The notes under the pieces: generated by a model
Seen by the model: only the letters and a program-made list of their open reading frames with translations
Databases searched by the model: none
Told to the model about the DNA's origin: nothing
Shown: positions 16,226 through 61,716 of the stretch, piece by piece
Layout: each line of letters starts with the position of its first letter
Numbering within the stretch: the stretch's first letter is position 1
Translations under genes and position numbers: made by a program
Assembly (NCBI GenBank): GCA_963932905.1
Contig: CAWVRN010000001.1
Location: forward strand, 507,391 to 571,390
Source: an uncultured Bdellovibrio sp.
GTDB taxonomy: Bacteria > Bdellovibrionota > Bdellovibrionia > Bdellovibrionales > Bdellovibrionaceae
Reading direction: 5' to 3'
DNA: 64,000 nt

Positions 16226-16302
16226 GGGGGTGTAGCTTAGTTGGTTAAAGCAATCGGCTCATAACCGATGGATCCGGGGTTCAAGTCCCTGCGCCCCTAC
16301 CA
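16226..16302 (+). tRNA. tRNA with CAT anticodon (tRNA-Ile2 or elongator tRNA-Met); ICE target
   Basis: Cloverleaf: acceptor GGGGGTG/CGCCCCT, anticodon arm ATCGG-CTCATAA-CCGAT, T loop TTCAAGT, encoded CCA; lacks initiator features; position after rpoD favours Ile2. Confidence 0.95.
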
Positions 16303-16323
16303 ATTTTATCGTTACCTGAACTT
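16273..16323. repeat. Left attachment junction (tRNA arm + CTACCA core + element arm)
   Basis: Core CTACCA 16297-16302; element arm TTACCTGAACTT 16312-16323 is the exact reverse complement of 61681-61692. Confidence 0.85.
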
Positions 16324-18101
16324 CTGATCGAGGAGTTCTGGTTTTCTCCAGCAGCACATTTTAAATTCTCACCCGCAGCTTCGGCTGCCGAATCAGGGAC
16401 CGTACCTGAGGATATCGCACGTCTTCTTTCATTCGCATTGGGAGCTGGGCGTTTTCGACGACCAAATGAAATAATGTTAGACTTATCATTTGAGTTTTCG
16501 CCTTGTGGCTCCACTTTAAGAGAAAAATCCCGATCTTCAGAGTTCGTCCAGAACGTAATTAAAAGCTCTGTTTGGGTCACAACGATCTCTTTTATAGTTC
16601 GTCGTAATAGTCGCTTACGCATGGCTGGCGTCGCCTTAGCCCAGCCCTGCATGCACCACCGGATTTGATTTTCTACGAATAGGGTTTGCTCTTTAAAGGC
16701 AAATGGGTCACTGGCTTTTGGATCAAGGGTTGATAAGTATTTCTCAAGGTCTTGCTTTTGTTTCGCAAGACGATTGAGTTCATCACTCGCCAGTTTCAGA
16801 GCATCTTCGCTTAATTGCATTCTAGATTGGTTTGTCCAAATCGAGGTAATGCGATTTTGAATGTCCTTAAGCTCTTTTTGTGTTCGATCAAATTCCGCAG
16901 CGCCGCCCTTTGTGTTTGCATCGGATTGTGATTTTAGAGTTTTTTCTAGATCATCAAAATATCCCTGAGTCATTAAAGCCGATCGCAATTCAGAAATCAC
17001 TTTTTCTTCCAGTTCGTCCGCATTCAAGCGTGGTCTTACGACTTTTAAATCTTTTGGACGACGCGAATAATGATAATATCTATGAATGGTTCCGCTACTT
17101 CCATGACCGGCTTGGCCGACAAGTGGTATTCCTGTAATTCCACAAGTCAGTATGCTCGTCAGAAGAAAAATGCGTTTTTCAGTTTTGGACATTCGTGTGC
17201 GTTCTCTCAGTGAAGCTTCTTCAAGTAAACTTTGAGCATCGAAAAATATCTTTTCATCTAAAATCGCAGGCCATGCGGCAGGAACAATTTGATATTTTTG
17301 CCAAGGCTTCAAGTGGGACGGGTCTTCATCCTTATAGACTTTATTTACTTCTCGTTTTCCGATGTACGCGATGTTTTCAATCAATGAACCTAAGCTTTGA
17401 TAATTCCAAATTGAATTTTGATTTTCTTTTTGTTTTGTGGAAGTTCGCTTAGGTCTAATTCCTAATTCGTTAAGCTTCGCTACCGCTTTCGCACGCGAGC
17501 CTTCATCCAAAAATATTTGAAATATTTTTTGAACGATTTGAACTTCGCTTTCATTTACCACAAGCAAACCTTTTTTGTCGGGATGTTTATCGTAACCCAT
17601 CGGAGCTGGGCCACCATTCACAAGACCGCGTAGTGCCCGTGAATGGCAATTCACTGCCACACGTTCACTTGTTTGCTCTCTTTCAAACTGACCTAAAATA
17701 ATAATGATATACACAAGCATGCGCCCAATCGGGGTGCTTGTATCAAACTGTTCTTTCATCGAAAGGTAACTTGCATGATGCTTTTCTAGTTCGTTAATAA
17801 GAGAGCAGAAATCCATCAAATTGCGTGAAAGTCGGGTTAAATCACTGACTAGAATTAAATTTATTTTCCCTTTGCGAACGTCAGACATTAGTTTTTGGTA
17901 AACAGGTCGATTCGTCGTTCCGGCGGATACGCCCTCTTCAACGTAAAACTCGACGATATTTCCCCAGTCAGCTTGTTGACGATTTTTATACTGCACAAAC
18001 TCATTGATTCTATATTTTTGCGAATCTAGCGATCCCTCAAAAACATTTACCTGATCTTCCGTTGATACTCTTATGTAGGCCCCAATCTTAAGCGACTTCA
18101 T
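16281..18101 (-). CDS. Large serine recombinase (integrase), integrated-state form; stop codon lies in the tRNA T loop
   Basis: YIRVST catalytic Ser, DLTRLSR, FEREQTSER, APMGY recombinase domain, zinc-ribbon-like segment, coiled coil. Confidence 0.95.
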   Translation of the reverse strand: MKSLKIGAYIRVSTEDQVNVFEGSLDSQKYRINEFVQYKNRQQADWGNIVEFYVEEGVSAGTTNRPVYQKLMSDVRKGKINLILVSDLTRLSRNLMDFCSLINELEKHHASYLSMKEQFDTSTPIGRMLVYIIIILGQFEREQTSERVAVNCHSRALRGLVNGGPAPMGYDKHPDKKGLLVVNESEVQIVQKIFQIFLDEGSRAKAVAKLNELGIRPKRTSTKQKENQNSIWNYQSLGSLIENIAYIGKREVNKVYKDEDPSHLKPWQKYQIVPAAWPAILDEKIFFDAQSLLEEASLRERTRMSKTEKRIFLLTSILTCGITGIPLVGQAGHGSSGTIHRYYHYSRRPKDLKVVRPRLNADELEEKVISELRSALMTQGYFDDLEKTLKSQSDANTKGGAAEFDRTQKELKDIQNRITSIWTNQSRMQLSEDALKLASDELNRLAKQKQDLEKYLSTLDPKASDPFAFKEQTLFVENQIRWCMQGWAKATPAMRKRLLRRTIKEIVVTQTELLITFWTNSEDRDFSLKVEPQGENSNDKSNIISFGRRKRPAPNANERRRAISSGTVPDSAAEAAGENLKCAAGENQNSSIRSSGNDKIGRGAGT

Positions 18102-18294
18102 CTAAAATCTCCTCTCGGATAACGGGACGACCTTTTCTCTGGCCAAGTAAAATAAGCTGACAGATAATTTCTTTCGCCTGGCTCATGCGAAGTTTTCCTT
18201 CCGGAGTTCTGTCATTTTCGAATCTTACTCTCACAATTAAATCCTTTGCCTTTGAAAAAGTGTCATCCGTTGTTGTTACAACTTTCAGACTCAC
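18088..18294 (-). CDS. Small protein overlapping int start, candidate directionality factor
   Basis: 68 aa, basic KGRP motif, coupled to int; function inferred from position only. Confidence 0.5.
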   Translation of the reverse strand: MSLKVVTTTDDTFSKAKDLIVRVRFENDRTPEGKLRMSQAKEIICQLILLGQRKGRPVIREEILDEVA

Positions 18295-18545
18295 TTAGAG
18301 CCTTTTCGTTTGGGTTTACTGAGCTCTGCACAATGATCTTTTAATTCTGTCAGCAGCTCTGATCTTTTTTTCTCGGGCCACTGATCTAAAATTCTCATGA
18401 TCGATTGAATCAATACGCTTGGCGTTCTAAAACCGCTTTCATAGTGATTCACTGGCAAGTAACTCGATAACCCAAATACTTCGGCAAGTTGCTTTTGCGT
18501 AAGCCCCATTTTTTCTCGTATTTCACGAAATTCTTTAGGCTTCAT
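18291..18545 (-). CDS. XRE-family HTH regulator
   Basis: IREKMGLTQKQLAEVFG...YESGFRTP. Confidence 0.85.
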   Translation of the reverse strand: MKPKEFREIREKMGLTQKQLAEVFGLSSYLPVNHYESGFRTPSVLIQSIMRILDQWPEKKRSELLTELKDHCAELSKPKRKGSK

Positions 18546-18964
18546 GCCGATTCCTTACTTTCTTCAACATTATCTATGATAATGTTTTGATTCAAGCTCT
18601 TTTTAGCTTTTTTCGCAGTTGGCTGTGGACCTGCGTCTAAAAATTCTTGCAGTAATAGTTCACGAATTGAATCTGGGATAACGCCAGTTTCTTTAATACG
18701 CTTCATTTTCACCTCCATCGCCGTTATAGGATCAAAAAACAATACCCTCATATCATGGATTTCTTTCTCAGTGCAGCTAGAAACGAAACGCATAATGATA
18801 TGTGACGCTAAATCTTGCTTCGTCGCTCGACCCGCATCAAATTTTTCGTCAATTCTATTTAACACCTCAACCAATGCTCTATCAGCTTCTTTAGAAATCG
18901 CAATTTTCGCCATATTTTCTTCATTTTTATTTTTTGTCTTTAGTTCCTTTTCTTCTTTATTCAT
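18542..18964 (-). CDS. Hypothetical ICE protein, possible relaxosome accessory protein
   Basis: GGAGG RBS before ATG 18964; KIAISKEA strand-helix pattern; next to hairpin. Confidence 0.55.
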   Translation of the reverse strand: MNKEEKELKTKNKNEENMAKIAISKEADRALVEVLNRIDEKFDAGRATKQDLASHIIMRFVSSCTEKEIHDMRVLFFDPITAMEVKMKRIKETGVIPDSIRELLLQEFLDAGPQPTAKKAKKSLNQNIIIDNVEESKESA

Positions 18965-19000
18965 AATTACACCTCCTATTTTTAATATTTTTTTTGTATT

Positions 19001-19104
19001 ACCCACCCAGTCTCGTCCCCCGGTTCCTGTCCACCTCCAATCAACTCGTTGGGTGGGGGTGGACAGGAAAAATCGTAGATTTAGGGGGACGAGACTGGGT
19101 GGGT
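19001..19104. repeat. 104-nt nested inverted repeat, candidate oriT
   Basis: 21-bp perfect outer arms 19001-19021/19084-19104; 16-bp inner arms 19024-19039/19054-19069 with one mismatch. Confidence 0.75.
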
Positions 19105-19135
19105 CGCATTTGTTTGATTTTGCTTTGTATTTTCA

Positions 19136-19951
19136 TCAGGCTGCTTCCTGCTTTTTTGTATTTTTTAAAGAGACGGCAGTCTCTTTATCGTCTCGGGAAA
19201 ACCTGAGCGGCTTGATTTCAAACTTCGTTAAAATCGTTAGCAAATTTTTAAACGTCATTTCTTGATCGTTAAAGCGTATATTTGTATTTAACCTCTCAGG
19301 ATCAAATTCAGTTATATTAAATAGACCTGGGACTCGTTTTTTATCCGCAAACGCTCTACCGCTAAATGACTGCCTAACAACGGCCTCGGCTGAATCAGAG
19401 TCACAGGCAAACAACATAACACTCACTTTTGAATATCCCAGATAAGCCAATGCAATCTTAGCATAACGTGACCGTGATTTTGTGGTGCGCTCAATTTCTA
19501 GTGAACATCGAACAGAACCGCCGGCGCTTGATCTTAAATCAAAAACCACATCGGGAATTTTTGGAACTTGCTCGCCACCTAAAATCGAAAATGCATCAAC
19601 TGGATTTCGCATAAGCTCATCTTCAAGCCAATACCTTGAAATTAGGTTTCGATTTTTGAGGGCCAAAATTATTCGAGCGGCGATGGCATCGTGTTCAATA
19701 TAAATTGATTGCCGCGCCGGTCTTGCTGCATCACCAGAAACATTTCGGCCTTTAGGTGTTAGGATTAAAACTTTGTCACTCGCATTTGAACGACGGAAAT
19801 GGCCGCATTCAACGAGCGAATTCCAATACCTAAATTTGTGAGCACGGCTCATTGGGCACATAAACTCAAAAAACAAGTCTTGTGTTAAAAAGCCCCACCG
19901 TGCGGCAAATTCACGTGCCTCTGACACAATATCATTTCGCCAATGCCTCAT
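19136..19951 (-). CDS. Replic_Relax/MOBC-like putative relaxase
   Basis: wHTH-like N-terminus (LTPKG), HD, PD...LEIERTTKS..RY nuclease-fold motif; downstream of the coupling protein. Confidence 0.7.
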   Translation of the reverse strand: MRHWRNDIVSEAREFAARWGFLTQDLFFEFMCPMSRAHKFRYWNSLVECGHFRRSNASDKVLILTPKGRNVSGDAARPARQSIYIEHDAIAARIILALKNRNLISRYWLEDELMRNPVDAFSILGGEQVPKIPDVVFDLRSSAGGSVRCSLEIERTTKSRSRYAKIALAYLGYSKVSVMLFACDSDSAEAVVRQSFSGRAFADKKRVPGLFNITEFDPERLNTNIRFNDQEMTFKNLLTILTKFEIKPLRFSRDDKETAVSLKNTKKQEAA

Positions 19952-20241
19952 GGGGCCACCTTTTCTTGACCCGCGATAGGGACAAGAACAAAATTTCCGA
20001 GTTCAATTTGGCCATCAACTAAACCGGCCTCGCGCCATTCTAAAATATAATTGGAACTCAATTTATCTTTTAGGCTATCAGGAATTTTAAAGTCTGATCC
20101 AATATTCACCTGACGGATTCTAACTTGGCAGCTTGTTGTACCGACTAAAACGGTCCTTGCTCCTTCAGGGTTTCCGCACTTTGGTTTGCTGGCACATGAT
20201 GCCAATAGACTCAATGAGATACACAAAATAAGTTTACTCAT
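19948..20241 (-). CDS. Small T4SS lipoprotein (VirB7/TraV-like)
   Basis: Lipobox LASC; inside transfer operon. Confidence 0.55.
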   Translation of the reverse strand: MSKLILCISLSLLASCASKPKCGNPEGARTVLVGTTSCQVRIRQVNIGSDFKIPDSLKDKLSSNYILEWREAGLVDGQIELGNFVLVPIAGQEKVAP

Positions 20242-21893
20242 GAAGCCTTCCTATTTTGTTCAGTCAAAATATGGCTCATGACGTTTTCTGGAGTATTCTG
20301 CGCTATCACCAGCGCTTCTTTATCCGTCTCGATTTTTTTGGCTATGCTTACCGGTTCTGATTTTTTTATTTTCGGAATAACTGGTTTATCCAAATCAAAG
20401 GATTTTTTAAACTTTAGCCGAATTGGTAGACTTCCTTTTTCGTGCGGTAGAATTAGAACAGCTTCACCGATACCCATTGTTTGTTTAAAGATGTTAGGAT
20501 GAAACTTGAATTCTTCAACATCACGCACCGATCCATCACCAGTCTTTTCTGAACCAAAAAGACTTTGCTTTTGCCGTTCGGTAACTTTTGATCCTTCGCA
20601 GGTGCCAATGACTTCTGAAAAATAGCTAGCCGACTCCGGCTCATTGGTTCGCATGAATACCTTTAAGTTGGAATTGGTCAGTATGGTATTCATGACGCCA
20701 TCACCAAGGGCCTTCAAATCACCAAGGGCTTGATGGGCAAACACAATTCCGACATTGGCACTTCGCGATTTATTTAAAAGTGTTACAAACCCCGGCGTTA
20801 GGTACTCCGTAAAATCATCCAGATAAACTGAAAAGAATTTCTGGCCTTGGTATTTCCCAAGATGCCTTGAGCCCACAGCGCTTTGTAAACACTGAAGAAT
20901 CATTTTCCCGGTGGCTTTACCAAGTGTTGGAATCTTTAGGGCCGGAAGTTGGCAGTATACGATTTCGCCGTTTTCAAGCGCCTGCTCAAGATTAATATCC
21001 GAGTTTTCGCTATTAAAAATACCAGCTGACTCACCAACAGTAAAACTTTGCAGCTGCGCAACTAAGCCGCTTGTTCTTTGTTCGCGCTCTTCGCGTGTTA
21101 GCTTTAGGAAATCTTTAGACCAGGATTGCAATCTTTCGTTTTTCGACTCTGCTGCTAGCTCTGATAATACCTTTTCATTCTTAAGACACTCAATGACCCG
21201 GTACGGAGTCGCTTTGATTTTCGACGCTTCTAAAATCATTAGACAATGCAGAAAAGCATCGTACTGAATGCTTTTAAAGTATTCGTTTTCAAAATTTAAG
21301 GCGTTAAATACGCGCTCGGCGACTTCTAAGACCGATCCACCAGATAGGGGATTGAATGTGTGACTGATGCCTACATTACAAATTGATAAAATCCGAATAT
21401 CCTGTTCGCGGTCGTGTTTTTTTGCATAAGCGTAGAGTTTATCCAATAGATTTGAATCTGATTTACCATCTATCATCAAGAGTCCTCGGCCCTTTTTGAT
21501 ATCATCAATTGCCCAAGGCAGAATTACAGACTCTGTTTTGCCTGCGTTAGTTGTGCCGACAACTTGGGTATGCATTCGTCTAAAGGTTTGCTTTATAAAA
21601 ACAGATTTACCTTTATCTGAAATCCCAGCATAAACGGCGTCTTCATTTTCCTTTGGTTTAATGACATCATTTTCGATATCTCTTTCTTCAAAAAGCGAAA
21701 GCCATTTTTTCTTTAGCTTAATGAAAGCAATTAGAATTACTGCTGTAATCAATAAGGCAATAGCTATGCGCCACTTAAAATAAAACATTACGATCTGGAA
21801 TTTGTATTTTAGCCAAAGAACAAAAATCCCGAGCGTAACAACCAGTATTAAAAATCCTCTATCTGTCATGTCTGATCGATTATTTTCACTCAT
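20238..21893 (-). CDS. Type IV coupling protein (VirD4/TraD-like)
   Basis: Two N-terminal TMs, GTTNAGKT Walker A, IDGK, VYLDDF Walker B, KSRSA..HQ. Confidence 0.9.
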   Translation of the reverse strand: MSENNRSDMTDRGFLILVVTLGIFVLWLKYKFQIVMFYFKWRIAIALLITAVILIAFIKLKKKWLSLFEERDIENDVIKPKENEDAVYAGISDKGKSVFIKQTFRRMHTQVVGTTNAGKTESVILPWAIDDIKKGRGLLMIDGKSDSNLLDKLYAYAKKHDREQDIRILSICNVGISHTFNPLSGGSVLEVAERVFNALNFENEYFKSIQYDAFLHCLMILEASKIKATPYRVIECLKNEKVLSELAAESKNERLQSWSKDFLKLTREEREQRTSGLVAQLQSFTVGESAGIFNSENSDINLEQALENGEIVYCQLPALKIPTLGKATGKMILQCLQSAVGSRHLGKYQGQKFFSVYLDDFTEYLTPGFVTLLNKSRSANVGIVFAHQALGDLKALGDGVMNTILTNSNLKVFMRTNEPESASYFSEVIGTCEGSKVTERQKQSLFGSEKTGDGSVRDVEEFKFHPNIFKQTMGIGEAVLILPHEKGSLPIRLKFKKSFDLDKPVIPKIKKSEPVSIAKKIETDKEALVIAQNTPENVMSHILTEQNRKAS

Positions 21894-22839
21894 ATTCATC
21901 ACCTCCATCTTGTAGTTTTAAAGAACCACTTAAAACAGCGTCACATTCAGTGCCTGTTTTAAGTTCGATCCATTCACGTTCTGCTTTTAATTTTTCGCCG
22001 TAAGACTGCGCGCGGGCTTGAGCCGTTGCAGCGACCGCTCCAAGGAGTCCGTTTTCAATGCCGCCCTTGGATCGCCCAAGAACATCTGTTTCCATTGAGC
22101 CTTGAGCAAGACCGCCAACAAAGGTCGTAATAATTTGACCGGCCGTATTCTTGACTCCATCTGAAAAGACTCGACCGATGACACCTGGCTGACCGTCTTT
22201 ACTTAAAGCACTGCCCGCGATCTTTCGAATTTTTCCACTGGGCAAAGATATCTGACTAAACCTAATCTGCGCTCGATCTGTGCCTTTTTGAAAGCTGGCC
22301 TCACCATAAAAACGAGTTCCCGCTGATAAACGCAATCCCGACTCAGTGACTGAATCTAGAATTAGCTCGGCTAACACGGGTACTGATTCCTGCGAAACAA
22401 TAACGTTATCAATTAATCGAAGCGGGAGTCTTTCACCAGCGCGAAGTTGAGTTTTAGCATTCTGACCACTTCCAACGATCATCGATGTATTGTAGTTCAC
22501 TTCATTTCCACCACGCGGAACCGAAAACGAATTGACCGGAGGCCCCCATAAATTTTGAGCTGAACTTGCTTGTGTGGATCTATCTGACGGAGAACTTGAG
22601 TCTTCGTTGGTCTTTGCTTTTTCAATTTTTTCTGTAAACTCAACAGGAACCTCTGTCGGTAAGATAAAAACAACAGAAATAAATAAAACTAAGCCGATGA
22701 CTGCCATATTCCGAAAGGCCTTGAAATTAAGATCCTTTTTCTGACTGACTTCATTTTCTTTAATAAAAATTGATTTTATTTTTAAAAAGAAATTTTTTAT
22801 CCCGCTAAAGATATTTTTTATTTTAGATATTACTTCCAT
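21886..22839 (-). CDS. VirB10/TrbI-like core protein
   Basis: TM, low-complexity linker, GTRFYGEA, RAQIRF, DGQPGVIG. Confidence 0.75.
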   Translation of the reverse strand: MEVISKIKNIFSGIKNFFLKIKSIFIKENEVSQKKDLNFKAFRNMAVIGLVLFISVVFILPTEVPVEFTEKIEKAKTNEDSSSPSDRSTQASSAQNLWGPPVNSFSVPRGGNEVNYNTSMIVGSGQNAKTQLRAGERLPLRLIDNVIVSQESVPVLAELILDSVTESGLRLSAGTRFYGEASFQKGTDRAQIRFSQISLPSGKIRKIAGSALSKDGQPGVIGRVFSDGVKNTAGQIITTFVGGLAQGSMETDVLGRSKGGIENGLLGAVAATAQARAQSYGEKLKAEREWIELKTGTECDAVLSGSLKLQDGGDEYE

Positions 22840-23540
22840 AACGCAACCTCGGAAATAGATATTGAATTCGTTTTTGAACCTTTCAATTCGACGCGAATGG
22901 GTTTTCCTTTAACCAGATCAGATCGTGCAATGGATACACCGATTTTAAGAGGTTTATCCATTGTTAATTTTGTACTTGATAAAAAAAGGCTATTAACAGT
23001 TTTTGAATTGTCACCTTGAAATACCCATACGTCTTCTGGTTTAATTGTCACAAACTCGTTTGGTTTTAGTTTCAGCGACAAATCAAGTAGAACAAAGTCA
23101 TATTGAGAAATACCAATTCGTTCAATTACTAAAATCAAACCGTTTGCATCGCTTGATTTTCCCGATTTCTGCCATCGTACTTGTGAATTTGCACCATCTC
23201 TGAATGACGACAGAATATATACAATATAGTCAGCCGAATCCTGGGTAAGAGTTTGGAGCCGAATATTGTATCGCTTTTTATCGGCCACCAGATATAAATT
23301 GGTTTTGGCACTTCCTCTAAGGGGCTTTATCGTCACAGCCTTATCAAGATATTCAATCTTGAATGCCGATTGATCACCAATGATTGCCGACTGAATGGTT
23401 TCCGGAAGCTGAATGATGGTTGCAATCCCAAGAGCCGTTCTCACTGTTAATATTTGATCGTCACTGTAAACAACTTTTCTTATGTGCGCCGACACACAAA
23501 GTGAAAAAACAGAAACTATGATAAATATAGAATACCTCAT
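22830..23540 (-). CDS. VirB9/TrbG-like core protein
   Basis: Signal peptide, TIIQLPETI..IIGD, IKP...TNL. Confidence 0.75.
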   Translation of the reverse strand: MRYSIFIIVSVFSLCVSAHIRKVVYSDDQILTVRTALGIATIIQLPETIQSAIIGDQSAFKIEYLDKAVTIKPLRGSAKTNLYLVADKKRYNIRLQTLTQDSADYIVYILSSFRDGANSQVRWQKSGKSSDANGLILVIERIGISQYDFVLLDLSLKLKPNEFVTIKPEDVWVFQGDNSKTVNSLFLSSTKLTMDKPLKIGVSIARSDLVKGKPIRVELKGSKTNSISISEVALWK

Positions 23541-24133
23541 CGCGCAGCCTCTTCAGTTTCTTTTGATATATAAACGCCCCAAGGATTCACGATGGTGCGA
23601 TCATCCGTGCCGAAGTGAAAAATGAGTTTCATTTCGGTTGCGGCTTTCAGATTATCAAACTCTGTAATACGATCAGCAAGAACCGTGACCTTTTTTTCTT
23701 TTAGATCAACAGTAATATTCTTTGGATAAACTCGCTGTTTCACTTTCTTTTCGCGAACAAATTTTTGCACTTCGAGCATTGATTTTTCAAAGGCTTGAAC
23801 CAATGACGGAACGACAAAAAACTTTGCTTTACCGAGGGATTCATTAATTGTTTTTTCATCCCAAGAGTATCGATAACTGACATATTCCTTAACCGCAGAT
23901 TCGATTTGAAGATCTGTGATTTTTGTTTCAACTTTTGCAACGGCGCCTGTGCTATCTAAAGCGATAACAAGCGGTCCTTGCTTCACAAGATAGAGCACAA
24001 GCAAAACTTGCAGGAACGTAATGGCAAGAAGGCCCCCGCAAAGATACTTAATATTAAAGTTTTCTGTGGCAAACTGCTGCATGGCTTTTGGGTAGAAACT
24101 CGTTTGTAGCGTGATTTTTTTATTTGTATTCAT
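23537..24133 (-). CDS. VirB8/TraK-like protein
   Basis: Single TM, C-terminal R...NPWGVYI. Confidence 0.7.
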   Translation of the reverse strand: MNTNKKITLQTSFYPKAMQQFATENFNIKYLCGGLLAITFLQVLLVLYLVKQGPLVIALDSTGAVAKVETKITDLQIESAVKEYVSYRYSWDEKTINESLGKAKFFVVPSLVQAFEKSMLEVQKFVREKKVKQRVYPKNITVDLKEKKVTVLADRITEFDNLKAATEMKLIFHFGTDDRTIVNPWGVYISKETEEAAR

Positions 24134-24147
24134 AATGACACCTCCTT

Positions 24148-25023
24148 CTAAGACCCTTTGGGTCTAAATGTTGATTGAATGTTTTGAAATTTCTGACTTG
24201 CATAAGATCTTGTATTTGAAATCATTTCGCGTGATACCTGATGAACAGTGGCAATTCGGGTCGGCAATGCCACGGCAGCTAGTGCCGCAGTAGTTCCAAT
24301 TGTTTGCGCGGTAGCCTGAACACCTTCGCCGATGAGGGATCGCACAATCATTGGAGTAAAAAGCATTGCAATAGCAATGACAAAGTTCATCACGATCAAA
24401 GTTAAATATGATCCATCAGTTTGATAGATGTTTCCAAATGAGAGTGATGTGAGCATTGCCGACATAATCGCCCATATCACCTTCCATAGCGCCACTTCTA
24501 TTAAGCCCTTATAAAGATTTGCTGTAATCCCTGCTGTTTTTGGAAAGACATAGCAGAGAATCATGAGCGGCGCGCAGACCGACAAAAGCACCCAATAAAA
24601 ATAATAAAGCGCAACTGTGATGTAGCGTGCGAGCAGCAAAAGCAAAAAGCTTCCAAAGCTGAGTATGGCCATAAAAAGATCATCAAATTTCAGAAGCAAC
24701 ACGTTTTTTGCGACCGCATAGCTTCTGGATTTTTCTTCTGCCATTCGCATGAAGGTTTCAATTCCAGACATATTGTCAATTTTAAGAGCGAGCCCGTCAC
24801 AAATATCTAGAATCAAATTTGAAACTTCTGGAAATGAAGCCAGCAGCAAAGCCGCAACGAACGATCTTTTTATAATGTCTGGATAATTTGAATCACCAGA
24901 TTTTAAATACCCAAACACTACTGAAAATAAAACAGCCACCGGCAGCATGATATAAAATAAATTACTCAGGCCGTGATGAAGGTCTTTAACTAGTGATCCT
25001 AAAACTTCTAGATTTGGAGTCAT
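24148..25023 (-). CDS. VirB6-like polytopic membrane protein
   Basis: Multiple TMs, position in T4SS operon. Confidence 0.7.
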   Translation of the reverse strand: MTPNLEVLGSLVKDLHHGLSNLFYIMLPVAVLFSVVFGYLKSGDSNYPDIIKRSFVAALLLASFPEVSNLILDICDGLALKIDNMSGIETFMRMAEEKSRSYAVAKNVLLLKFDDLFMAILSFGSFLLLLLARYITVALYYFYWVLLSVCAPLMILCYVFPKTAGITANLYKGLIEVALWKVIWAIMSAMLTSLSFGNIYQTDGSYLTLIVMNFVIAIAMLFTPMIVRSLIGEGVQATAQTIGTTAALAAVALPTRIATVHQVSREMISNTRSYASQKFQNIQSTFRPKGS

Positions 25024-25721
25024 TGGCCACCTCCGATTCTTGGCAGCCTTGTGTCCTTCGGAAGGCTGCCAAAGCCTCGGGATAGCCCCTGATAGTTTTC
25101 TTGGAAGTTTTGGGTCGCAAGTTTCTCTTTTCTAGTATCATAGGCCATATTTTGAGCCATGATTTTTAGCATTTGAGATTGCGTCCGCAGTAGCTGAGTC
25201 GAAACACCGATCAAAACCGCGAGTGCCTGATTCTGAAGTTTCCCGGCCCCTTGGGGACTAACCACTTGCGCATGAAACAAAATTTTATCTCGTTCGACAT
25301 CAACTTGGTCGGCGTAGTCGTACAAATTTCTGTTCATTGAAATGACTTCAGCAACGCTTTGATCTTGCGATCGCATAAGGTCTTCATCCATGCCGCTTGG
25401 AACAACTCCATACACCGATTGAAGAGCCCTTAGAACGGCATCAGCATTATTCAAATTACCATAGACCCCAGGGTTAAAATTGGGATTAATAATTCGAATC
25501 AAGTCAATGCCGCTCCTGACTCCCGCGTTTATGTCGCGCATGAGATCTAAAGTGTCCTTTCCGTTTTCAAGGACGTTTTTTAAAGTAATGACGGTCTGAA
25601 TGGCCTGAGCTAAGATTTGAGTCAGCACCACAACATCACCTCCGAAGAGGTCCGCTTTCGCGGATCTTGGGCCAATAAAAATTATCGCTGCAATTATCAT
25701 CGCAGAAAATTTATTTTTCAT
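25020..25721 (-). CDS. VirB5/TrbJ-like protein
   Basis: Signal peptide, helical Gln-rich, between virB4 and virB6. Confidence 0.6.
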   Translation of the reverse strand: MKNKFSAMIIAAIIFIGPRSAKADLFGGDVVVLTQILAQAIQTVITLKNVLENGKDTLDLMRDINAGVRSGIDLIRIINPNFNPGVYGNLNNADAVLRALQSVYGVVPSGMDEDLMRSQDQSVAEVISMNRNLYDYADQVDVERDKILFHAQVVSPQGAGKLQNQALAVLIGVSTQLLRTQSQMLKIMAQNMAYDTRKEKLATQNFQENYQGLSRGFGSLPKDTRLPRIGGGQ

Positions 25722-28189
25722 GACGCGACCGATTTTGAGAAATTTTGGTAGGCCACTCCAAATGGCGCAAGTTCGCTAGCTTTTATTAAGGCATCTTCTA
25801 ACGATAATCCATCCGACTTTAGCGATTCTAGAAACTGATTGTCGCGGGCATCTGATGTAGAAACCCAATATTCCAATGGTGATGGCTCGATACGAATAAC
25901 TTGCCTTGATTCACCCTCCATCAAAAAGCCTTCACTAAATTGACCTTTGCGCTGCTCAAGACTTTGTATCAATCGCAGTTCCTGGGAATTTAATTTTAAA
26001 GCGTCGCGCAGAACAGCGGTGTCGCCCTTTTGAAGCATGACAAGTTTTGTAGCTGTATTATTTAAAATCGCTGGTCCCATTCCGCTTGCAATAATCTCTT
26101 CCACGCCTTGGGTAATAAAAGTGATTCCGCTGCCAGTTTTCCTAAAGGTACGGGCTGCATATTCCATAAAGGAACTGGCCGCAGGACTCTTCAATAGGTC
26201 CCATGCCTCATCGAGCAAGACTCGTTTTGGAATGGTCCGCTCGGCTTCCACTTGTTCCAAAATAAAATTAGTCAGAATCAAAATCATCACAGATTGTAAA
26301 TCTGGATATTGCGATAGCCCCTTTAAATCAAAGGCAACGATTGGTCTATCCGCTTCAATTTTGCCAGCACCATCCAGCAACTTTCCATAAGGCGTTTTGC
26401 CGGTCCAAGGAAAAAGCATTTTACCAATGCGCTTCAAAGATTCGTCGTTATGGCTAAGACAATACTTAGACAAATCGGAAAGTTTTGGTGACCGCGCTTG
26501 ATTTTCACCACGAACTGAATCAAATACTGCTGTAAGTGCTGCTTCTAACTGGACACGGTCAAATCTGGATAATTTCTCGCCGCTATCAACGACCATTTGC
26601 TCAATCACACTAACAAGACTTTTAATGCGCTCGCCAGTTGGCGGAGCTGATGGGTCGCGAAGTTCAAATGGGTTAATGATATATTCGCCGGTGAGATTAA
26701 TTTCAAAATACTGACCGCCCAGAACTCGAGTCATTTTTTTGTAAGAGCCGCCGATGTCGATAATATACACCCTAGTGCCACGGGCTATTTGCTGAAGCAT
26801 TAAAAAATTGTTGGCAAAACTTTTTCCAGATCCGCTTGAACCTGTAACTAAAGCGTTAAAATTACTAAGCCTGGCCGAATAGGAATTCATTGAATATAAA
26901 GTCCCTAGTCTTGTTTTTAAGAGGCATACTGGTTTTTCATCACCAGTGGCCGCGCCAAAGAGTGGGAAAAAATCGACCAGATTGTTTGTTTTCAACTTTT
27001 TAGATCTTACCAAATTCACCGGTGCCAGCGGCAAATCTGATTTAAATACTTTCCATGCGCCCACGGTCTCTTGAATTCCTTCAGATCCACTGAGCGTTTT
27101 AAATTTAGCTAAGACTTCTTTTGTGTGAAGATTAAGCTTTCGAGCACCGGCTGCTGAATTTTCTTCGCGAATAACAATCATAAGTTGGGCTTGAAAAATT
27201 CTTTGCCCAGTTTCAATAATCTCACGAATCAAATCAGTCGTTTGCGATAGGCGCGATTCACTTTCTAAATCTGAAACCCTATTTCCACTGTTTGCTGATA
27301 GGGAGTGTGCCATTCGCCGCTTTTGGTCAAGCCCCTTCATTTCCTTTGATTGGTCGGGGACGTTGAATGACAAAAATAGTTCATACTTAAAAGGTAAAGC
27401 CAAAAAGCCACTCATCATTCCCGCAAATGTCATTTCCGGAAGTGTCTTAAGCGTTAGAACTCTAGTTTTTTGACTATCAAGAGTAAAGTCTTCTTGATCC
27501 AGCACCAAATCCCCAAAAACAAGTTGTTCTCGCGGTGAATTTCCCTCTATTGCAATACTATTGCAATTTACTTTTGGCGCACCAATTGAGGAAGACCGTT
27601 TAGGGTTCAGATAGCGGTACAATAAATTAATAAAATCATCTTTAGTCAATTCAGACGCTAAAAAACCAAGTGATGAAAGAGATCCTTTTGCGCCCTCTAG
27701 GGACTGCGACAAGGTTTGCAGCTGATCTTCGTATCCTTTTTCAAATTCAACTGAGAACTTTTTTGTTTGCCCTAATGAAAATGAATTTGGTTTTTGCCTC
27801 TGGCTGGTCTTTATAAAAAAGAATAATCTTGGCCTAAATAATTCTCCATCTTCAGTTTGTTTTAATAAAACATTCGATCTCTTTTGATCGAGCGCGCAAA
27901 GAAACTTATTCTCTGTCGTTAATAGATCGACATGCCTTTTAATGACGCCGCCAACATCAGAATCATTGACCACCATAAACTGAGCTGTAACACCTTCTGG
28001 TAAGGAGTTAGCAAATGAACGCAGTCCGAATGCAAGTTGATTGATACGAGCTTCATCGAAGCACTCAATATCTAACGGCAATAACTCTAATCCTGACGAA
28101 AGCGATCCATCGCAAAGAATCGCATGTGATACAGGTTTTGATTCAATTTCCCAAAACGGCAGTTGTTCGCATAATGATGCCTGGTTCAT
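25718..28189 (-). CDS. virB4: VirB4/TraC conjugation ATPase
   Basis: GSSGSGKS, IIDIGGSY, INPF, LLDEAW, ARTFRK, ITQ. Confidence 0.93.
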   Translation of the reverse strand: MNQASLCEQLPFWEIESKPVSHAILCDGSLSSGLELLPLDIECFDEARINQLAFGLRSFANSLPEGVTAQFMVVNDSDVGGVIKRHVDLLTTENKFLCALDQKRSNVLLKQTEDGELFRPRLFFFIKTSQRQKPNSFSLGQTKKFSVEFEKGYEDQLQTLSQSLEGAKGSLSSLGFLASELTKDDFINLLYRYLNPKRSSSIGAPKVNCNSIAIEGNSPREQLVFGDLVLDQEDFTLDSQKTRVLTLKTLPEMTFAGMMSGFLALPFKYELFLSFNVPDQSKEMKGLDQKRRMAHSLSANSGNRVSDLESESRLSQTTDLIREIIETGQRIFQAQLMIVIREENSAAGARKLNLHTKEVLAKFKTLSGSEGIQETVGAWKVFKSDLPLAPVNLVRSKKLKTNNLVDFFPLFGAATGDEKPVCLLKTRLGTLYSMNSYSARLSNFNALVTGSSGSGKSFANNFLMLQQIARGTRVYIIDIGGSYKKMTRVLGGQYFEINLTGEYIINPFELRDPSAPPTGERIKSLVSVIEQMVVDSGEKLSRFDRVQLEAALTAVFDSVRGENQARSPKLSDLSKYCLSHNDESLKRIGKMLFPWTGKTPYGKLLDGAGKIEADRPIVAFDLKGLSQYPDLQSVMILILTNFILEQVEAERTIPKRVLLDEAWDLLKSPAASSFMEYAARTFRKTGSGITFITQGVEEIIASGMGPAILNNTATKLVMLQKGDTAVLRDALKLNSQELRLIQSLEQRKGQFSEGFLMEGESRQVIRIEPSPLEYWVSTSDARDNQFLESLKSDGLSLEDALIKASELAPFGVAYQNFSKSVAS

Positions 28190-28509
28190 AATTCACCCCC
28201 TTTGTTAAATTTTCGATATTGAAAATCTTGTGAGTTGGCCGAGAAAACAGTTGGCGAGATAAGATGCTCAAAATAATGTTGCAGAAACTGATCAGGTTTT
28301 CCTTTCTTAAAGAAAAACAAAATCAAAAAGAGTCCAAGACTTGTTCCAAAAACCATTGGAATCTTCATCGAGGTCGATCCAAAAATTAAATTTTGAACTG
28401 ACAAATTTAAAAGCAAGATCAATACGTCTGACAGCTCCAGACCCAAAATTTTATTTTTTGTTTCTAGTGTTCTTGGGACCGATGAGGTCAATAGATTAAA
28501 ATCACTCAT
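28186..28509 (-). CDS. VirB3/TraL-like membrane protein
   Basis: Two TMs, KGKP motif, directly upstream of virB4. Confidence 0.65.
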   Translation of the reverse strand: MSDFNLLTSSVPRTLETKNKILGLELSDVLILLLNLSVQNLIFGSTSMKIPMVFGTSLGLFLILFFFKKGKPDQFLQHYFEHLISPTVFSANSQDFQYRKFNKGGEL

Positions 28510-28793
28510 TAGCGCACCGTCTGCGATATAAAATCAACAATCGCCTGTGCGCCAAAACCGATGATACTACCAAGAATCGCATACCACATATGCGTCTTGG
28601 CTTTTTCATTGCCGCTCATCAAACTAAAAGCCGCCCATGCAATTCCAATAATAGAAAGTGTCGGTAAAATAACTCGGGTCAATTTCGTCTGAATTCCCAT
28701 TAATGAAGACTCAACACTTGCAAGTCCAAGCTCTGGAACGATCAATAATGCTGCCGTCAGCATAAAAATAAATAAATATGATTTTCTGTTCAT
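28509..28793 (-). CDS. VirB2/TrbC-like pilin
   Basis: AGGAGG RBS, signal peptide plus two hydrophobic helices, IIGFGAQAIV. Confidence 0.8.
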   Translation of the reverse strand: MNRKSYLFIFMLTAALLIVPELGLASVESSLMGIQTKLTRVILPTLSIIGIAWAAFSLMSGNEKAKTHMWYAILGSIIGFGAQAIVDFISQTVR

Positions 28794-28818
28794 AAATGTA
28801 CCTCCTGTGTTAGTTGTT

Positions 28819-29232
28819 TTAAGATGCAAGGCTGTCCTCCAGTCCCTCTGATTTTTCCGGAAACAAGCAAAGGAAAATATTTTCTGGGATTAGCTGAATT
28901 CGTAGCGCAATAAAACTTCCAGCTAGTTTTCCTTCACCGATTCGATACCAGCTTGATTTCATTTCGCCTGTCGGTAATTGGTATTCTTCAAGACTGAGGA
29001 CAACGTACTTGGTATCATCATTGTCATCAGGCAGTATGAAATATTGAGTATTTGGGTGTGTGAATAGTTTAAGGCGAAATTTTTTAGATCCTGCTTTTAA
29101 ATACGCTACGCCAACGCTTTCACCTTCAATGACTTCACCTGATGAAGTCATTTCCCCAGTATAAACGCCATATTTTTCTGATTTACGAATAGGGATCACA
29201 TTACTAAATGAAAAATCGCTAGATTTATTCAT
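28819..29232 (-). CDS. Hypothetical beta-rich protein (DUF736-like ssDNA-binding candidate)
   Basis: Tandem VGVAY / WYRIGEG pattern, acidic tail. Confidence 0.4.
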   Translation of the reverse strand: MNKSSDFSFSNVIPIRKSEKYGVYTGEMTSSGEVIEGESVGVAYLKAGSKKFRLKLFTHPNTQYFILPDDNDDTKYVVLSLEEYQLPTGEMKSSWYRIGEGKLAGSFIALRIQLIPENIFLCLFPEKSEGLEDSLAS

Positions 29233-55210: not shown

Positions 55211-55610
55211 AAAAGCTCCTTTAGTATATTGAATCGAATTAATGATCGATTGCTTATAGTATAAGTGCATATTCGAACCGAAATATTACAGATTTATTTT
55301 TTATCTGCAGAATTTTTTTAAAATTATTATTTATCGACAGCTTTTTTGTAAATTTAAGACTGGTGAACTTCAGATTTGGCTTAGTTTACGGATGTAAAAA
55401 TTACAGGTTATAACCTCTTTTTCAATAATTGATTTTCTAAATTGTTTTTTATAACTTCATTTTGAAACCAAATAATAAATCGAGTGTTGGAGCAGCTTTC
55501 ATCAACCTCTAATTGGCCAACCGACTAATGTGAGTAAGTTCATTAAAAAAATTTTCGGTACAATATAAAACTAAGTAGTGACTAGAAGAAGCTGCCTGCC
55601 GAAAGTGTGG

Positions 55611-55949: not shown

Positions 55950-55964
55950 TTTTTTGATCCTTTG

Positions 55965-56999: not shown

Positions 57000-57006
57000 T
57001 ATAATC

Positions 57007-58248: not shown

Positions 58249-58249
58249 T

Positions 58250-58918
58250 TTATACAACTTTCTTTGCTTCAAGAGGGAGCCCATGAGAAGCCCACTCATG
58301 AACGCCATCTTTGATGAATGAAGCTTTAAACCCCTTTTTTCGTAGCAATTCGACAGCCTCTTTTGCAAAAAAACAATAAGGTCCTCTGCAATAAGCCACT
58401 ATCTCTGTTTTTTTAGAAAATTGGCGAAGCTCTGTATTCAATAGAGAGAGTGGAACAGAAATGGAATACGGTATGTGTGACGTATTGTATTCATCAATAG
58501 GACGTACATCTAAGAGAATTAAATCTCCAGCTTTAGCTTTCGCTAAGAGTTGTTTTCGATTTTGAATTTCAAATAGCAAAGACTCATTGAAAATTTCTGA
58601 AGTTATTTTTTGAATTTCATTAAAGTTATTCTCACTAAAAAGTCTTAGTTTGTAAACAAAATCAATAATTTCTTTATTTGGTATAAAATAATACACATAT
58701 TTTCCATCACGTCTTGATTCAACTAAATGTGCAGCTTTAAGCTCTTTAAGTTGTGCGCTCGCATTTTTAATTCCTAAATCTGCTTCTTCCGCCAATTTTT
58801 CAACTGACTTTTCACCCTGACTAAGAAGATCTAAAATTTCAATTCTTTTAGGACTAGAAAGTGCTTTTGTTGCTCTTGCGATTTGTTCGTATATGGCATT
58901 TTTTATCTGTCTTTTCAT
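58250..58918 (-). CDS. ArsR/SmtB regulator with rhodanese domain
   Basis: KALSSPKRIEIL..SVE.LA..ASAQLKEL; DVRP..EY..HIP, YCRGPYC. Confidence 0.9.
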   Translation of the reverse strand: MKRQIKNAIYEQIARATKALSSPKRIEILDLLSQGEKSVEKLAEEADLGIKNASAQLKELKAAHLVESRRDGKYVYYFIPNKEIIDFVYKLRLFSENNFNEIQKITSEIFNESLLFEIQNRKQLLAKAKAGDLILLDVRPIDEYNTSHIPYSISVPLSLLNTELRQFSKKTEIVAYCRGPYCFFAKEAVELLRKKGFKASFIKDGVHEWASHGLPLEAKKVV

Positions 58919-58925
58919 GTCTAAC

Positions 58926-58945
58926 ATTCTAACGAATATTAGAAC
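58926..58945. promoter_or_regulatory. Candidate ArsR operator
   Basis: TTCTAA-N6-TTAGAA palindrome just upstream of the start. Confidence 0.5.
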
Positions 58946-59006
58946 ATAATGCAATAAATTTAAAAAAGCCGTGCAAATATTGGATATTACTATTGTAATT
59001 TTAAAA

Positions 59007-60137
59007 CTAAGAGTAAAAGTTCAACTTTTTAAGTGAATATATGACTTCATGAACTTCATCTAAGGTTGTTGTTGTTCCCAATGAAAATCTAATCGCGCCA
59101 AGAGCAATTCTGGAATCGATATTCATAGCCTTTAAAACTGGTGAGATTGTATCATGACCAGAATGGCAGGCAGATCCAGTTGACGCTGCCAAATTTGGTA
59201 ATTTAGATAAAATCTGATTTCCACTTCGATCGACAAAAGATATATTTAAGGTATTTGGTAGGCAGCGATGAATATGCCCATTTCTAACGATTTTATCTCC
59301 AAATTCCACTTTAAGCAATTCCCACATTTTATCTCTTAATTGTGATACTTCAGTCATGTTGTTTGATACTGTGTTAATTGCTAATTTAGCAGCTTCTCCC
59401 ATCGCTATGCTGAGTAGTATATTTTCTGTTCCAGCTCGTTGTCCCATCTCATGACCAGCACCTTGTATTAGTGGATCTATGATCACATTTTTACGAATGA
59501 ATAGAGCGCCAATGCCCTTAGGAGCATATAATTTGTGTCCTGCAATTGAAAGCAAATCAACCCCAAGTTTTTTAACATCAATTTTCACTTTTCCGACAGA
59601 TTGAGCAGCATCAGTATGTAAATTAATTTTGGCGACTTTGGTAATTTCTGCTATTTCCTCAATTGACTGCAATGTCCCAACTTCATTATTTGAATGCATA
59701 ATTGAAACCAAAATAGTGTCTTTACGAAGTGCATTTTGAACGTCCCTAGGATTTATAAGACCATAAGAATCCACAGGTAAATAGGTAATATCAGCTCCAA
59801 ATTTTTTTAGATAATCACAAGGATTTTTTATCGCCGGATGCTCTATGGCTGAAGTAACAATATGTTTCCCTTTTTGCATATTAGCAAAAAAAATACCCTT
59901 GATAGCATGATTGTTTGATTCGCTACCACCACTGGTAAAATAAATTTCTTCCGGTGAGCAGTTGATAAGGTCTGCAACTTGCTGTCTTGAGTTTTCGAGT
60001 TGTGCTTTAAATGGTGAACCGGCCCAATGTTGACTAGATGGATTGCCTATTAGGACATCCAAATTTCTAGTTAGAGATTCTTTAACTTCCTGAGCTATTG
60101 GTGTACTTGCATTAAAATCGAAATAAAGGTTTTTCAT
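59007..60137 (-). CDS. Cysteine desulfurase (IscS/NifS family)
   Basis: YFDFNAST, FTSGGSESNN, EH, DAAQ, AGHK, GSACH. Confidence 0.93.
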   Translation of the reverse strand: MKNLYFDFNASTPIAQEVKESLTRNLDVLIGNPSSQHWAGSPFKAQLENSRQQVADLINCSPEEIYFTSGGSESNNHAIKGIFFANMQKGKHIVTSAIEHPAIKNPCDYLKKFGADITYLPVDSYGLINPRDVQNALRKDTILVSIMHSNNEVGTLQSIEEIAEITKVAKINLHTDAAQSVGKVKIDVKKLGVDLLSIAGHKLYAPKGIGALFIRKNVIIDPLIQGAGHEMGQRAGTENILLSIAMGEAAKLAINTVSNNMTEVSQLRDKMWELLKVEFGDKIVRNGHIHRCLPNTLNISFVDRSGNQILSKLPNLAASTGSACHSGHDTISPVLKAMNIDSRIALGAIRFSLGTTTTLDEVHEVIYSLKKLNFYS

Positions 60138-60288
60138 TTCAATTATAGTATATTTAAATGAAAAGAAATACAAATAGCTTGGTTCTGATTGCGAAAAAAT
60201 AGATTTTAAAAAAATTGCAGAGATCTTTGATGGGACTTGATAAATTCTCTTAGTTTATTACTTGCAACTTATTTGTGACGATCTAAAT

Positions 60289-60735
60289 TCAATCTAGGTC
60301 TTCAACCAAAACTTCTACGTCATGAGTCCAGTAATAAGTGCTTCCATTGTCGAACGAGATAATATTACCTTCTGTTTCTTCTGCAGACTCGTATTCTGAC
60401 TGAGCACATTCCCAAGAAATCGGATCTTGATCTTTCATCACGGTTATTGCGTTTAAGGTCATCCAGCCAACGGTGATAGTTTCACTTTCAAGAGTTGAAC
60501 GAACAGACTCTTCAAAAGCTTCAGATAAATCTATAGGGGATAATTCTAATTGTAAGATTTCTTCAATGATCCAATCTAAGCCATACTCGCAGCCATTTTC
60601 AGTGACCCGCATGAGCTCATCACTATGACATTTATTGCAAACTCCATTTGGACATCCTTGATAGCAGGTGTAGCAAAATGGTTTTGATCGAATAAGGGCT
60701 AATTTTTCAAGTTTTGATTTTAATTCTGTGTTCAT
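60289..60735 (-). CDS. Hypothetical acidic protein with N-terminal CxxC/CxxC
   Basis: PFCYTCY..C..CNKCHSD; AGGAG RBS. Confidence 0.75.
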   Translation of the reverse strand: MNTELKSKLEKLALIRSKPFCYTCYQGCPNGVCNKCHSDELMRVTENGCEYGLDWIIEEILQLELSPIDLSEAFEESVRSTLESETITVGWMTLNAITVMKDQDPISWECAQSEYESAEETEGNIISFDNGSTYYWTHDVEVLVEDLD

Positions 60736-60741
60736 AAAATT

Positions 60742-60968
60742 TCTCCTGTTTTTATTTGTGAGCCGCTCTTGTTTCAGCGACCTCTACACCTACGGCTGAG
60801 AGGTCCGAGGAGTCAGGTGAAAGCAAAGTGCAGTCAAATTCTTAAGATCCGACCAAGCAAGGCGGCATGAGGTGTGATAATTTTGAAAAAATTGGCGCAT
60901 CCTCAATGCGAAGGATCTGGCTCGAAGAATTTTATGAAACGTGCGCCAAATTTAAAGCAAACAGGAGA
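60742..60968. other. Nested inverted-repeat leader (candidate ssDNA promoter or structured RNA)
   Basis: TCTCCTGTTT/AAACAGGAGA closing arms plus several internal stems. Confidence 0.45.
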
Positions 60969-61016
60969 TTTGAATACGAAATCTATCGGCTTGAATTTTT
61001 GGTCTTAGTTACAGGC

Positions 61017-61211
61017 CTACTTTGACTTAACTTTTACATGAGAGGACTCGTGGCTGAAAAATCTAGGACTACCCCAAGTAGATGAGCGTGAATCATAAAT
61101 CGCTTTAGCTTGGGCTTTCCAAACCCAATTTTGAAATTGATCTAAATTTCCTGTTGCTGCGTATAACAATACAATCGCAGCTACCCACGCCATTAATTTA
61201 TCTAAGTTCAT
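61017..61211 (-). CDS. Small hypothetical membrane protein
   Basis: GGAGG RBS, hydrophobic helix, overlaps end of 61198 ORF. Confidence 0.6.
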   Translation of the reverse strand: MNLDKLMAWVAAIVLLYAATGNLDQFQNWVWKAQAKAIYDSRSSTWGSPRFFSHESSHVKVKSK

Positions 61212-61707
61212 ATTTACCTCCACTTTTCAGAATGACCGATTTGTTTTCAAATCGATTGATAATTTTGACAATTGAATTTCGATTCCATTTTTGAGCACAT
61301 CTAGGTCTTATTTTTTTCTCGTTTAAGCTGTCAGCGATGCGATTCGGATTAGTACCACTTTTCCATAGCTCATGAATCAGTTGGAGATTCACAAACTCTC
61401 TCGGATCGGGAATAACTTGGCCCTGAAAGAAACAGAAACCAAAATATGGTGCTGCATTTGTCTTGGCTGAATCTCGTATTGCAGTTGAAAAAGGTGCAGG
61501 AATACTAGATCTGATTCTAACGCCAGCCTTTACCAGAGCAGATCTTATAGTCGTTTTTGGCTTTCCAGTCTGCTTTGCTATATCTGATAAAGATAGCCCA
61601 TTGCTGTAAAGGTCCACCAAATTTTCGAAAACTCTTTGCCTTTCGGCGCCAGAAAACGTAGTCTTTCTGTGGACTTGTGAAAGTTCAGGTAAGTAGTGAT
61701 TCCCGCT
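61198..61707 (-). CDS. Start-less HTH + recombinase-domain module; predicted C-terminus of the integrase after excision
   Basis: Open from the att core to the stop at 61198; LYSNGLSLSDIAKQTG HTH; APYFGF..IHELW..IADSLNEKKIRPR..WNRNSI resembles the integrase recombinase domain; in-frame TAG at 61717-61719, no SD. Confidence 0.8.
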   Translation of the reverse strand, partial: SGNHYLPELSQVHRKTTFSGAERQRVFENLVDLYSNGLSLSDIAKQTGKPKTTIRSALVKAGVRIRSSIPAPFSTAIRDSAKTNAAPYFGFCFFQGQVIPDPREFVNLQLIHELWKSGTNPNRIADSLNEKKIRPRCAQKWNRNSIVKIINRFENKSVILKSGGKYELR

Positions 61708-61716
61708 ACCATTTTT
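61681..61716. repeat. Right attachment junction (element arm + core)
   Basis: AAGTTCAGGTAA 61681-61692, core CTACCA 61706-61711. Confidence 0.85.

Follow-up and report, generated by a model that had tools for sequence, protein, structure and literature searches.

The question raised by this locus is why a mobile element should open with an integrase gene that runs into its target tRNA and close, some 45 kb further on, with a recombinase-like reading frame that is start-less. The DNA analysed was a stretch of 64,000 nucleotides (nt), hereafter called the window, from an uncultured Bdellovibrio sp. (assembly GCA_963932905.1, contig CAWVRN010000001.1, positions 507,391-571,390 of the forward strand). 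It carries an integrative conjugative element (ICE) of about 45.4 kb, which lies at 16.3-61.7 kb at the tip of tRNA-Met(CAT) (16226-16302, plus strand), the sole tRNA detected in the window by ARAGORN and the integration target. Judged from the sequence, the integrase gene (int) is very probably split by integration, and the full gene, together with a small open reading frame (ORF) coupled to it, would exist only in the circular form. In the proposed mechanism, a large serine recombinase inserts the element at the tRNA-Met tip by means of an attachment site, attP, that lies inside its own coding sequence. Integration would cut int so as to leave a 606-amino-acid (aa) enzyme in which all the canonical domains are apparently present and whose junk tail derives from the tRNA. 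The last 169 codons, now start-less, would be stranded with the overlapping small ORF at a distance of 45 kb, and a 770-aa protein could be encoded, and the small ORF transcribed from int, in the excised circle alone. The initial annotation had likewise placed attP within int and had proposed that excision fuses it to a helix-turn-helix (HTH) and recombinase module; this proposal was supported by a dyad at the reconstructed attP, by the codon phase in 16 of 17 integrase/module pairs, by purifying selection on the module head and by the lack of a conserved module start.

The int gene was located at 18101->16281 on the minus strand, and its short product, the integrated form, ends at a TGA (16283-16281) in the T-loop of the tRNA. 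The last 22 nt of tRNA-Met are overlapped antisense by the int ORF, and the tail of the protein reads ...GNDKIG, followed by five codons of tRNA antisense and then the stop. At the other end of the element, the start-less module of 169 aa and a stop codon occupies 61707->61198 on the minus strand, with an in-frame TAG at 61717-61719 directly outside its frame. The two ends share the core TGGTAG on the minus strand, at 16302-16297 (attL, antisense to tRNA nt 71-76, inferred central AG at 16298-16297) and at 61711-61706 (attR, central AG at 61707-61706). The first T of this core is the third base of a codon at both ends, and a join anywhere within the common core therefore gives 601 + 169 = 770 codons. 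The coordinates and frame of the 606-aa int ORF with its stop in the T-loop, the start-less frame running from the same core in the same phase with TAG just outside, and the length of 770 aa on joining the ends had all been claimed beforehand and were reproduced here.

As a six-base repeat alone proves little, a dyad was sought as the signature of a serine-integrase attP. The attP was reconstructed by in silico joining of the element-side sequences of both ends, and 32 dyad centres were tried. This analysis revealed a 12-bp inverted repeat, perfect and with its centre at the AG of TGGTAG, which exceeds what chance would give; the runner-up among the 32 centres was a run of 4. The left half-site, AGTTCAGGTAAC, lies at 16311-16322 (minus strand) inside sequence that codes for the int tail, its inverted copy, with 1 mismatch to the 12-mer, forms the right half-site at 61682-61693 (plus strand) inside sequence that codes for the module head, and each half-site is 12 nt away from the dyad centre. 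The window's two element ends are predicted from this to be cognate. The central AG of the minus strand is CT on the plus strand, which is where the initial annotation had placed the crossover, and it corresponds to tRNA positions 72-71; because the crossover falls there, the element would replace just the final few bases of the tRNA.

The GAAC of the tRNA T-loop was found at +15 from the centre on 17/17 tRNA sides, and at +20 in 8/17 right and 11/17 left attP halves of the integrase/module pairs described below, the window having both. The predicted sites thereby show the same 5-bp offset between attB and attP (GAAC at +15 versus +20) as the motif of the zinc-ribbon domain of LI integrase, for which such an offset is given in the available text of Rutherford et al. 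(PMC3783163). An invariant tRNA feature used as one attB half-site would explain the spread of this lineage over many tRNA species, and suggests how one integrase lineage may move between tRNA targets.

The layout proved to be family-wide when its distribution was analysed across the bacterial family, in which the module was present in 94/182 genomes and the integrase in 82/182. In the window's genome all full-length paralogous integrases (8/8) are convergent to a tRNA 3' end with the ORF open into the tRNA, the targets being Met (two), Gln, Arg (two), Val, His and Asp, and none of its seven module paralogs has a consistent start. Conservation of the frame across attP in related genomes, which had been proposed as a check, was scored in 17 integrase/module pairs; these were all the pairs with a spacing of 25-54 kb on one contig and strand, namely 15 from other genomes, that of the window and that of contig C22. 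Twelve were scored automatically, one (G109:C2; relatives are given by working numbers for genome and contig) was inspected manually because its core carries one mismatch, and in three the core was placed by hand, the tRNA being masked, truncated or interrupted by the end of a contig. In 17/17 pairs the integrase frame stays open into a tRNA or what remains of one, and in 16/17 the module frame is open from the core and shares the integrase's codon phase. The best dyad centre of the reconstructed attP falls on the fifth to sixth base of TGGNNN in 16/17 pairs, with runs of 4-15 bp. Among the elements at tRNA-Arg(TCT) both phases occur and the module phase follows the integrase phase in each, which comes nearest to a compensatory change. 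The module on contig C41 and the integrase on contig C5 of the window's own genome, G000, were considered as a further pair and rejected, as their phases differ and they belong to different subgroups.

The domain composition of the short form was examined by profile search. It revealed Resolvase (PF00239, E 2.5e-31, residues 8-159) and Recombinase (PF07508, E 2.5e-15, residues 185-295), followed by Zn_ribbon_recom (PF13408, residues 313-373) at 19.6 bits, below the cut-off of 25.3, and by weak coiled-coil-type matches only at residues 402-486. The nearest NCBIfam model is CcrB, with a score far under its cut-off. In the region of residues 313-373 (about 16983-17165) there is apparently one cysteine where relatives such as the protein P0002 have several, and the metal site of the zinc-ribbon region may be degenerate. 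In comparison with the integrase of G173, the ratio of nonsynonymous to synonymous substitution rates (dN/dS) is 0.04 across residues 95-519. The low-complexity linker and tail that follow (residues 520-601, 16299-16544, minus strand), in which the frame stays open up to the core, have a dN/dS of 0.31 with 73/82 residues identical. The peptide at the junction is partly set by the DNA site, with GTTC/GAAC half-site motifs at fixed codon positions; the tails of the window's int and the eight paralogs show recurring G-S or S-S-G, and the heads show P-E-L or P-E-F across subfamilies.

The module consists of a head (residues 1-19), an HTH (residues about 20-60, 61528-61650, minus strand) and a second recombinase-domain fold (residues about 84-163, 61219-61458, minus strand). 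Pfam gave HTH_58 (E 6.1e-6) and a partial Recombinase match (E 4.7e-5), and an alignment of 28 modules showed a conserved HTH and a conserved block matching the start of the recombinase domain; the module also aligns weakly with the recombinase domain of int itself (29% identity). The AlphaFold model has a mean pLDDT of 73.7, both domains being at 84-95. Superposition of residues 84-163 with the recombinase domain of known integrases gave Z 9.7 and a root-mean-square deviation of 2.2 A over 77 residues for SPbeta, Z 7.7 for Bxb1 and Z 6.2 for LI integrase. Residues 17-64 form a generic HTH that resembles Fis, DeoR and LsrR (Z 5-6). A PDB sequence search returned the HTH match 2lvs and nothing else, and Foldseek by itself gave zero matches at E <= 0.001. 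The Pfam and structural matches are in accordance with the description of the module in the initial annotation as an HTH followed by a second recombinase-like domain. The small ORF (61017-61211, minus strand, 64 aa) begins with an ATG that is preceded by GGAGG and overlaps the module's last codons, and its product has a hydrophobic helix at the N-terminus. A homologue overlaps or abuts the module stop in 21/25 module loci examined, which agrees with the earlier suggestion that excision would put 61017-61211 under the int transcript. No family was found for the small ORF in Pfam, NCBIfam or the protein atlas. The stranded unit would comprise the head, the HTH, the recombinase domain and the coupled small gene.

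The role of these detached domains was then considered. The 606-aa form presumably excises the element, because it is the sole integrase that the element can make prior to excision, and it may do so with the aid of a directionality factor. The 770-aa form would be made in the freshly transferred circle, where the extra DNA-binding domains would act in integration or in circle-specific regulation, and splitting of the gene would turn this function off automatically once the element is chromosomal. We lean towards a role of the extra domains in integration or site capture. A stronger version, in which direction is switched without any factor, the circle-only 770-aa form capturing the tRNA and integrating and the 606-aa form being biased to or only competent for excision, is put forward tentatively as a possibility. 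If it were true, the same event would turn the coupled small membrane protein on and off, and module swapping would be a natural route of retargeting among at least six tRNA species. The 606- and 770-aa proteins form a ready pair for testing the effects of the extra domains on site choice and direction.

The main alternative to integration or site capture is a regulatory role, in which the gene is indeed split and the circle-only HTH signals the excised state and switches transfer or maintenance genes together with the small membrane protein. The likeness of the module HTH to the HTH of generic transcription factors points in this direction, as do the coupling of the module to a small ORF with no recombination-related signature and the apparent presence of every canonical integrase domain in the short form already. 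Against it, the second domain has specifically the recombinase-domain fold, with which integrases bind att half-sites in their solved complexes with DNA, and neither extra half-site copies nor a repeated operator were found in the window beyond chance; further arm-type half-site copies gave 8 matches against 3.7 expected, and 8 was reached by 6/100 shuffles. A purely regulatory role is considered rather unlikely.

The head of the module was examined to see whether the module is translated independently. The only candidate start within the module is TTG at 61620, and 29 codons lie upstream of it. In comparisons of the window with G172 and G086 (about 85% nt identity), the dN/dS of codons 1-29 was 0.07 and 0.10, the synonymous rates (dS) being 0.62 and 0.97, and that of the rest of the module was 0.05-0.06. 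The head is read as protein because its codons show purifying selection like the rest of the module. No start-codon position is common to 25 heads of the near subfamily, and 2/25 are without any ATG, GTG or TTG. Among 65 metagenome module loci, 12 run off the locus; of the other 53, 52 are stopped in frame within 148 codons upstream of the match and one is fused. The upstream in-frame stop in the near subfamily is often just 3-5 codons beyond the core. Translation through the junction from int would be the simplest way to make the module protein.

These results bear directly on the view that the module is an ordinary separate gene, for a regulator or directionality factor, which is translated from an internal start such as the TTG and whose continuity with int is incidental. 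Gene callers do give most public relatives as proteins of 150-230 aa, residues 30-31 of the window's module and of its closest relatives are a TTG/GTG pair, and an ATG arises at the junction itself in the tRNA-Arg subgroup of phase 1. The TTG is not kept past close relatives, however, and the selection on the codons upstream of it, the in-frame stops 3-5 codons outside the core in many loci and the agreement of module and integrase phase speak against a separate gene, which is held to be very improbable. A gene split at attP would explain the orphan start-less ORFs of the 'recombinase family' type that occur in about half of the genomes of the bacterial family.

Several observations weigh against the splitting of int by integration and have to be set beside this evidence. 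Among the 17 pairs, the head of G063:C1 is frameshifted by 1 nt, and G170:C81 has its best dyad at a different centre. For frames reading through the core, the chance of phase agreement is about 1/2 and not 1/3, because the core closes one of the three frames (TGG TAG, TGG TGA), and the 17 pairs represent only about seven independent classes of target and phase; for these two reasons the phase argument is strong only jointly with the other lines. Decayed copies are frequent: in G173 the integrase is 97% identical to that of the window and the best match to the module reaches 38%, in G086 a 92% identical module stands without any integrase at E <= 1e-40, and in G172 a 5'-truncated int lies 6 kb from the module. 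The window assembly is without attP or empty attB, each junction occurring once. A cognate circle junction was also not found in the assembled contigs of 19 public runs, where rare circles could not show; only contigs were used, none of the runs contains half of the sampled words, and four were aligned to the window. Two metagenome contigs touch the left junction. The first, of 428 nt, matches the int tail at 98.6% identity up to exactly 16297 and then diverges over 72 nt; the second, of 2611 nt, starts within the 3' end of the tRNA, at 16278, and extends into int.

Long fused products were met in the public data. Fused proteins of 769, 758 and 736 aa are present in databases, and open frames of 747-788 aa occur in relatives. 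They were considered as proof of the circle form and rejected, as those checked at the DNA level are junctions of different tandem elements; P0004 and P0005 are known as protein only, without DNA context. The DNA of P0002 is an array junction; in G174 it shares a 178-kb contig with tRNA-Met. Further weight on the same side comes from 10 evaluable long ORFs, some of them not module fusions, of which 0/10 has a strong dyad at a TGGNNN core, G172:C100 having been left out of the count for masked bases. The 10 are not taken as cognate attP because of this lack of a strong dyad. Four contigs with long fused ORFs were checked, and overlapping ends were found in none, none being circular. In G109:C16, G174:C46 and G025:C1 a second complete integrase further along reads into the tRNA, which shows the array context directly. 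The long ORFs show that the tail and head stay compatible in phase even between subfamilies, though they are not the circle form.

The remaining explanation, that the split is real and a dead end, with decaying islands that no longer excise and long ORFs that are accidental tandem chimeras, would fit the absence of a cognate dyad in the long ORFs, the frequency of arrays and remnants (the window included) and the failure to find a circular contig among the four tested, and is nevertheless held to be very improbable given the strong purifying selection between genomes on int, module and module head, cognate half-sites that in different subfamilies still form inverted repeats, perfect over as many as 15 bp, where decay would erode them, the intact conjugation gene set of the window's element, and a layout kept over at least six tRNA targets and 94/182 genomes.

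The extent of the element was delineated by comparison with relatives. The dnaG-rpoD-tRNA-Met left flank is kept in 8/9 relatives of the genus, and homology of this flank stops at 16303-16307 in 7/8 of them; in G173, which bears the same int, it continues. At the right end the same module (92-99% identical) is present in G161, G172 and G086, and homology to the window is lost at 61716/61715. Type IV secretion and coupling protein genes sit between the att sites, the criterion applied for an ICE by means of Pfam; they comprise a coupling protein of VirD4 type, TrbI, CagX/VirB9, VirB8, VirB4/TraC and a TrbC pilin (20238-29232, minus strand). No family match to a relaxase was found among the 47 ORFs scanned at E <= 1e-4, several of which have no assignment, and ORF 19139-19951 gave a faint MobC-like match (E 0.008). 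An HTH gene of Xre/MqsA type (18291-18545, minus strand; Pfam), a candidate regulator, lies just upstream of int. The cargo at 29.6-60.2 kb includes a sigma-54 two-component pair, ABC transporters, a cluster of radical-SAM/DUF3641, methyltransferase, aquaporin and phosphorylase genes, a fusion of a VTT domain with a mercuric-reductase-like oxidoreductase, and a sulfur cluster of rhodanese, DsrE and cysteine desulfurase with an ArsR-type regulator.

The sequence to the right of 61716 is not simple host flank and contains remnants of older elements. A stretch without integrase (61717-63572), termed stretch X and lying outside the element, holds an antitoxin-like ORF of BrnA/CopG kind, an SLT transglycosylase ORF and one unknown ORF; its homologue in G174:C3 adjoins a different module. 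It is followed by the 5'-truncated tail of a second integrase type (63573-63887, minus strand), the frame of which continues to 63465 (63465-63887), forming an older array junction. This tail, the last 100 codons or so, crosses a TTGGTAGG core at 63573-63582 and ends 36 codons further on, inside stretch X, and the contig ends at 64000, 113 nt past the integrase remnant. A 96% identical copy of this tail in G172:C69 runs straight on into tRNA-Met. tRNA-Met is regarded as an accretion site because the tail in G172 reads into it and stretch X in G174 adjoins a different module.

Similar remnants were observed elsewhere. In G000:C33 (33074-33676, minus strand) a tail remnant of a second-type integrase is fused in frame to a module via a TTTGGTAGC core, forming a fossil array junction in which the module has an internal TAA. 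Runs of two to four modules, 2-30 kb apart with no integrase between them, were found in G074:C91 (72.9-90.1 kb) and G025:C1 (1057-1102 kb), with further runs in G070:C13, G153:C57, G134:C10 and at L154/L156. Such runs could be decayed arrays that have preferentially kept their module ends, or small units without integrase moved in trans. The contigs C4, C18, C22, C5 and C58 of G000 start or stop no more than a few hundred bases from an integrase or a module (C22 has a module at 159, C4 a module 100 nt from its end and C5 an integrase at 950), and the repeated element ends appear to break this assembly. Orphan modules can serve as marks of element ends and of old integration arrays at tRNA genes.

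The predicted layout was compared with known systems in which attP lies inside a gene. In archaeal integrases of SSV1 type, integration partitions the gene and the intact gene is present only in the circle. These are tyrosine recombinases and are not known to retain a complete enzyme after the split; in the present element all canonical domains apparently stay with the integrated copy. In integration-dependent immunity the gene cut is that of a repressor and the effect is the loss of a short tail. The available text on mycobacteriophages of the BPs group describes attP within a coding sequence whose product depends on the integration state (PMC4557955). Here it is a recombinase that would be cut, with loss of DNA-binding domains. 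For the Mx8 integrase (IntP/IntX), attP is likewise described as lying in the integrase coding sequence, integration giving a new 3' end and an altered protein, in the portion of the paper available (PMC6070905). The present element resembles Mx8 in that the attP core is inside the integrase ORF and the C-terminus would be changed by integration, as inferred from the junctions. It differs from this tyrosine recombinase with its short C-terminal exchange in that a serine enzyme is concerned, and two folded DNA-binding domains and a downstream ORF would be detached.

In comparison with phiC31, Bxb1, LI/A118 and SPbeta integrases, the order of Resolvase, recombinase domain and zinc ribbon (sub-threshold here) with coiled coil (weak here) is the same. 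Dyad half-sites around a central dinucleotide, seen here in silico, and the 5-bp offset of an outer motif between attP and attB are also shared with the canonical enzymes. The targeting of tRNA tips and the second recombinase domain set the enzymes of the Bdellovibrio family apart. Canonical large serine integrases are valued as simple one-way tools, their direction being set by a separate protein, the recombination directionality factor (RDF). To our knowledge, attP does not lie inside int in the canonical serine integrases, and we know of no fold common to RDFs that would allow the module to be identified as such a factor. An engineered fusion of Int to an RDF exists, according to the available text of PMC5737554. 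In a literature search that did not cover subscription journals, neither a serine integrase that carries attP in its own gene nor any earlier treatment of the Bdellovibrio-family elements was found, and no natural state-dependent Int fusion was found in print. The principle is already known from Mx8, SSV-type integrases and integration-dependent immunity, the first and last being the closest precedents; the layout in a serine integrase, with two detached domains and a coupled gene, appears to be new. A natural family of enzymes that gain or lose two DNA-binding domains through the recombination they perform would represent a new coupling of enzyme form to DNA state.

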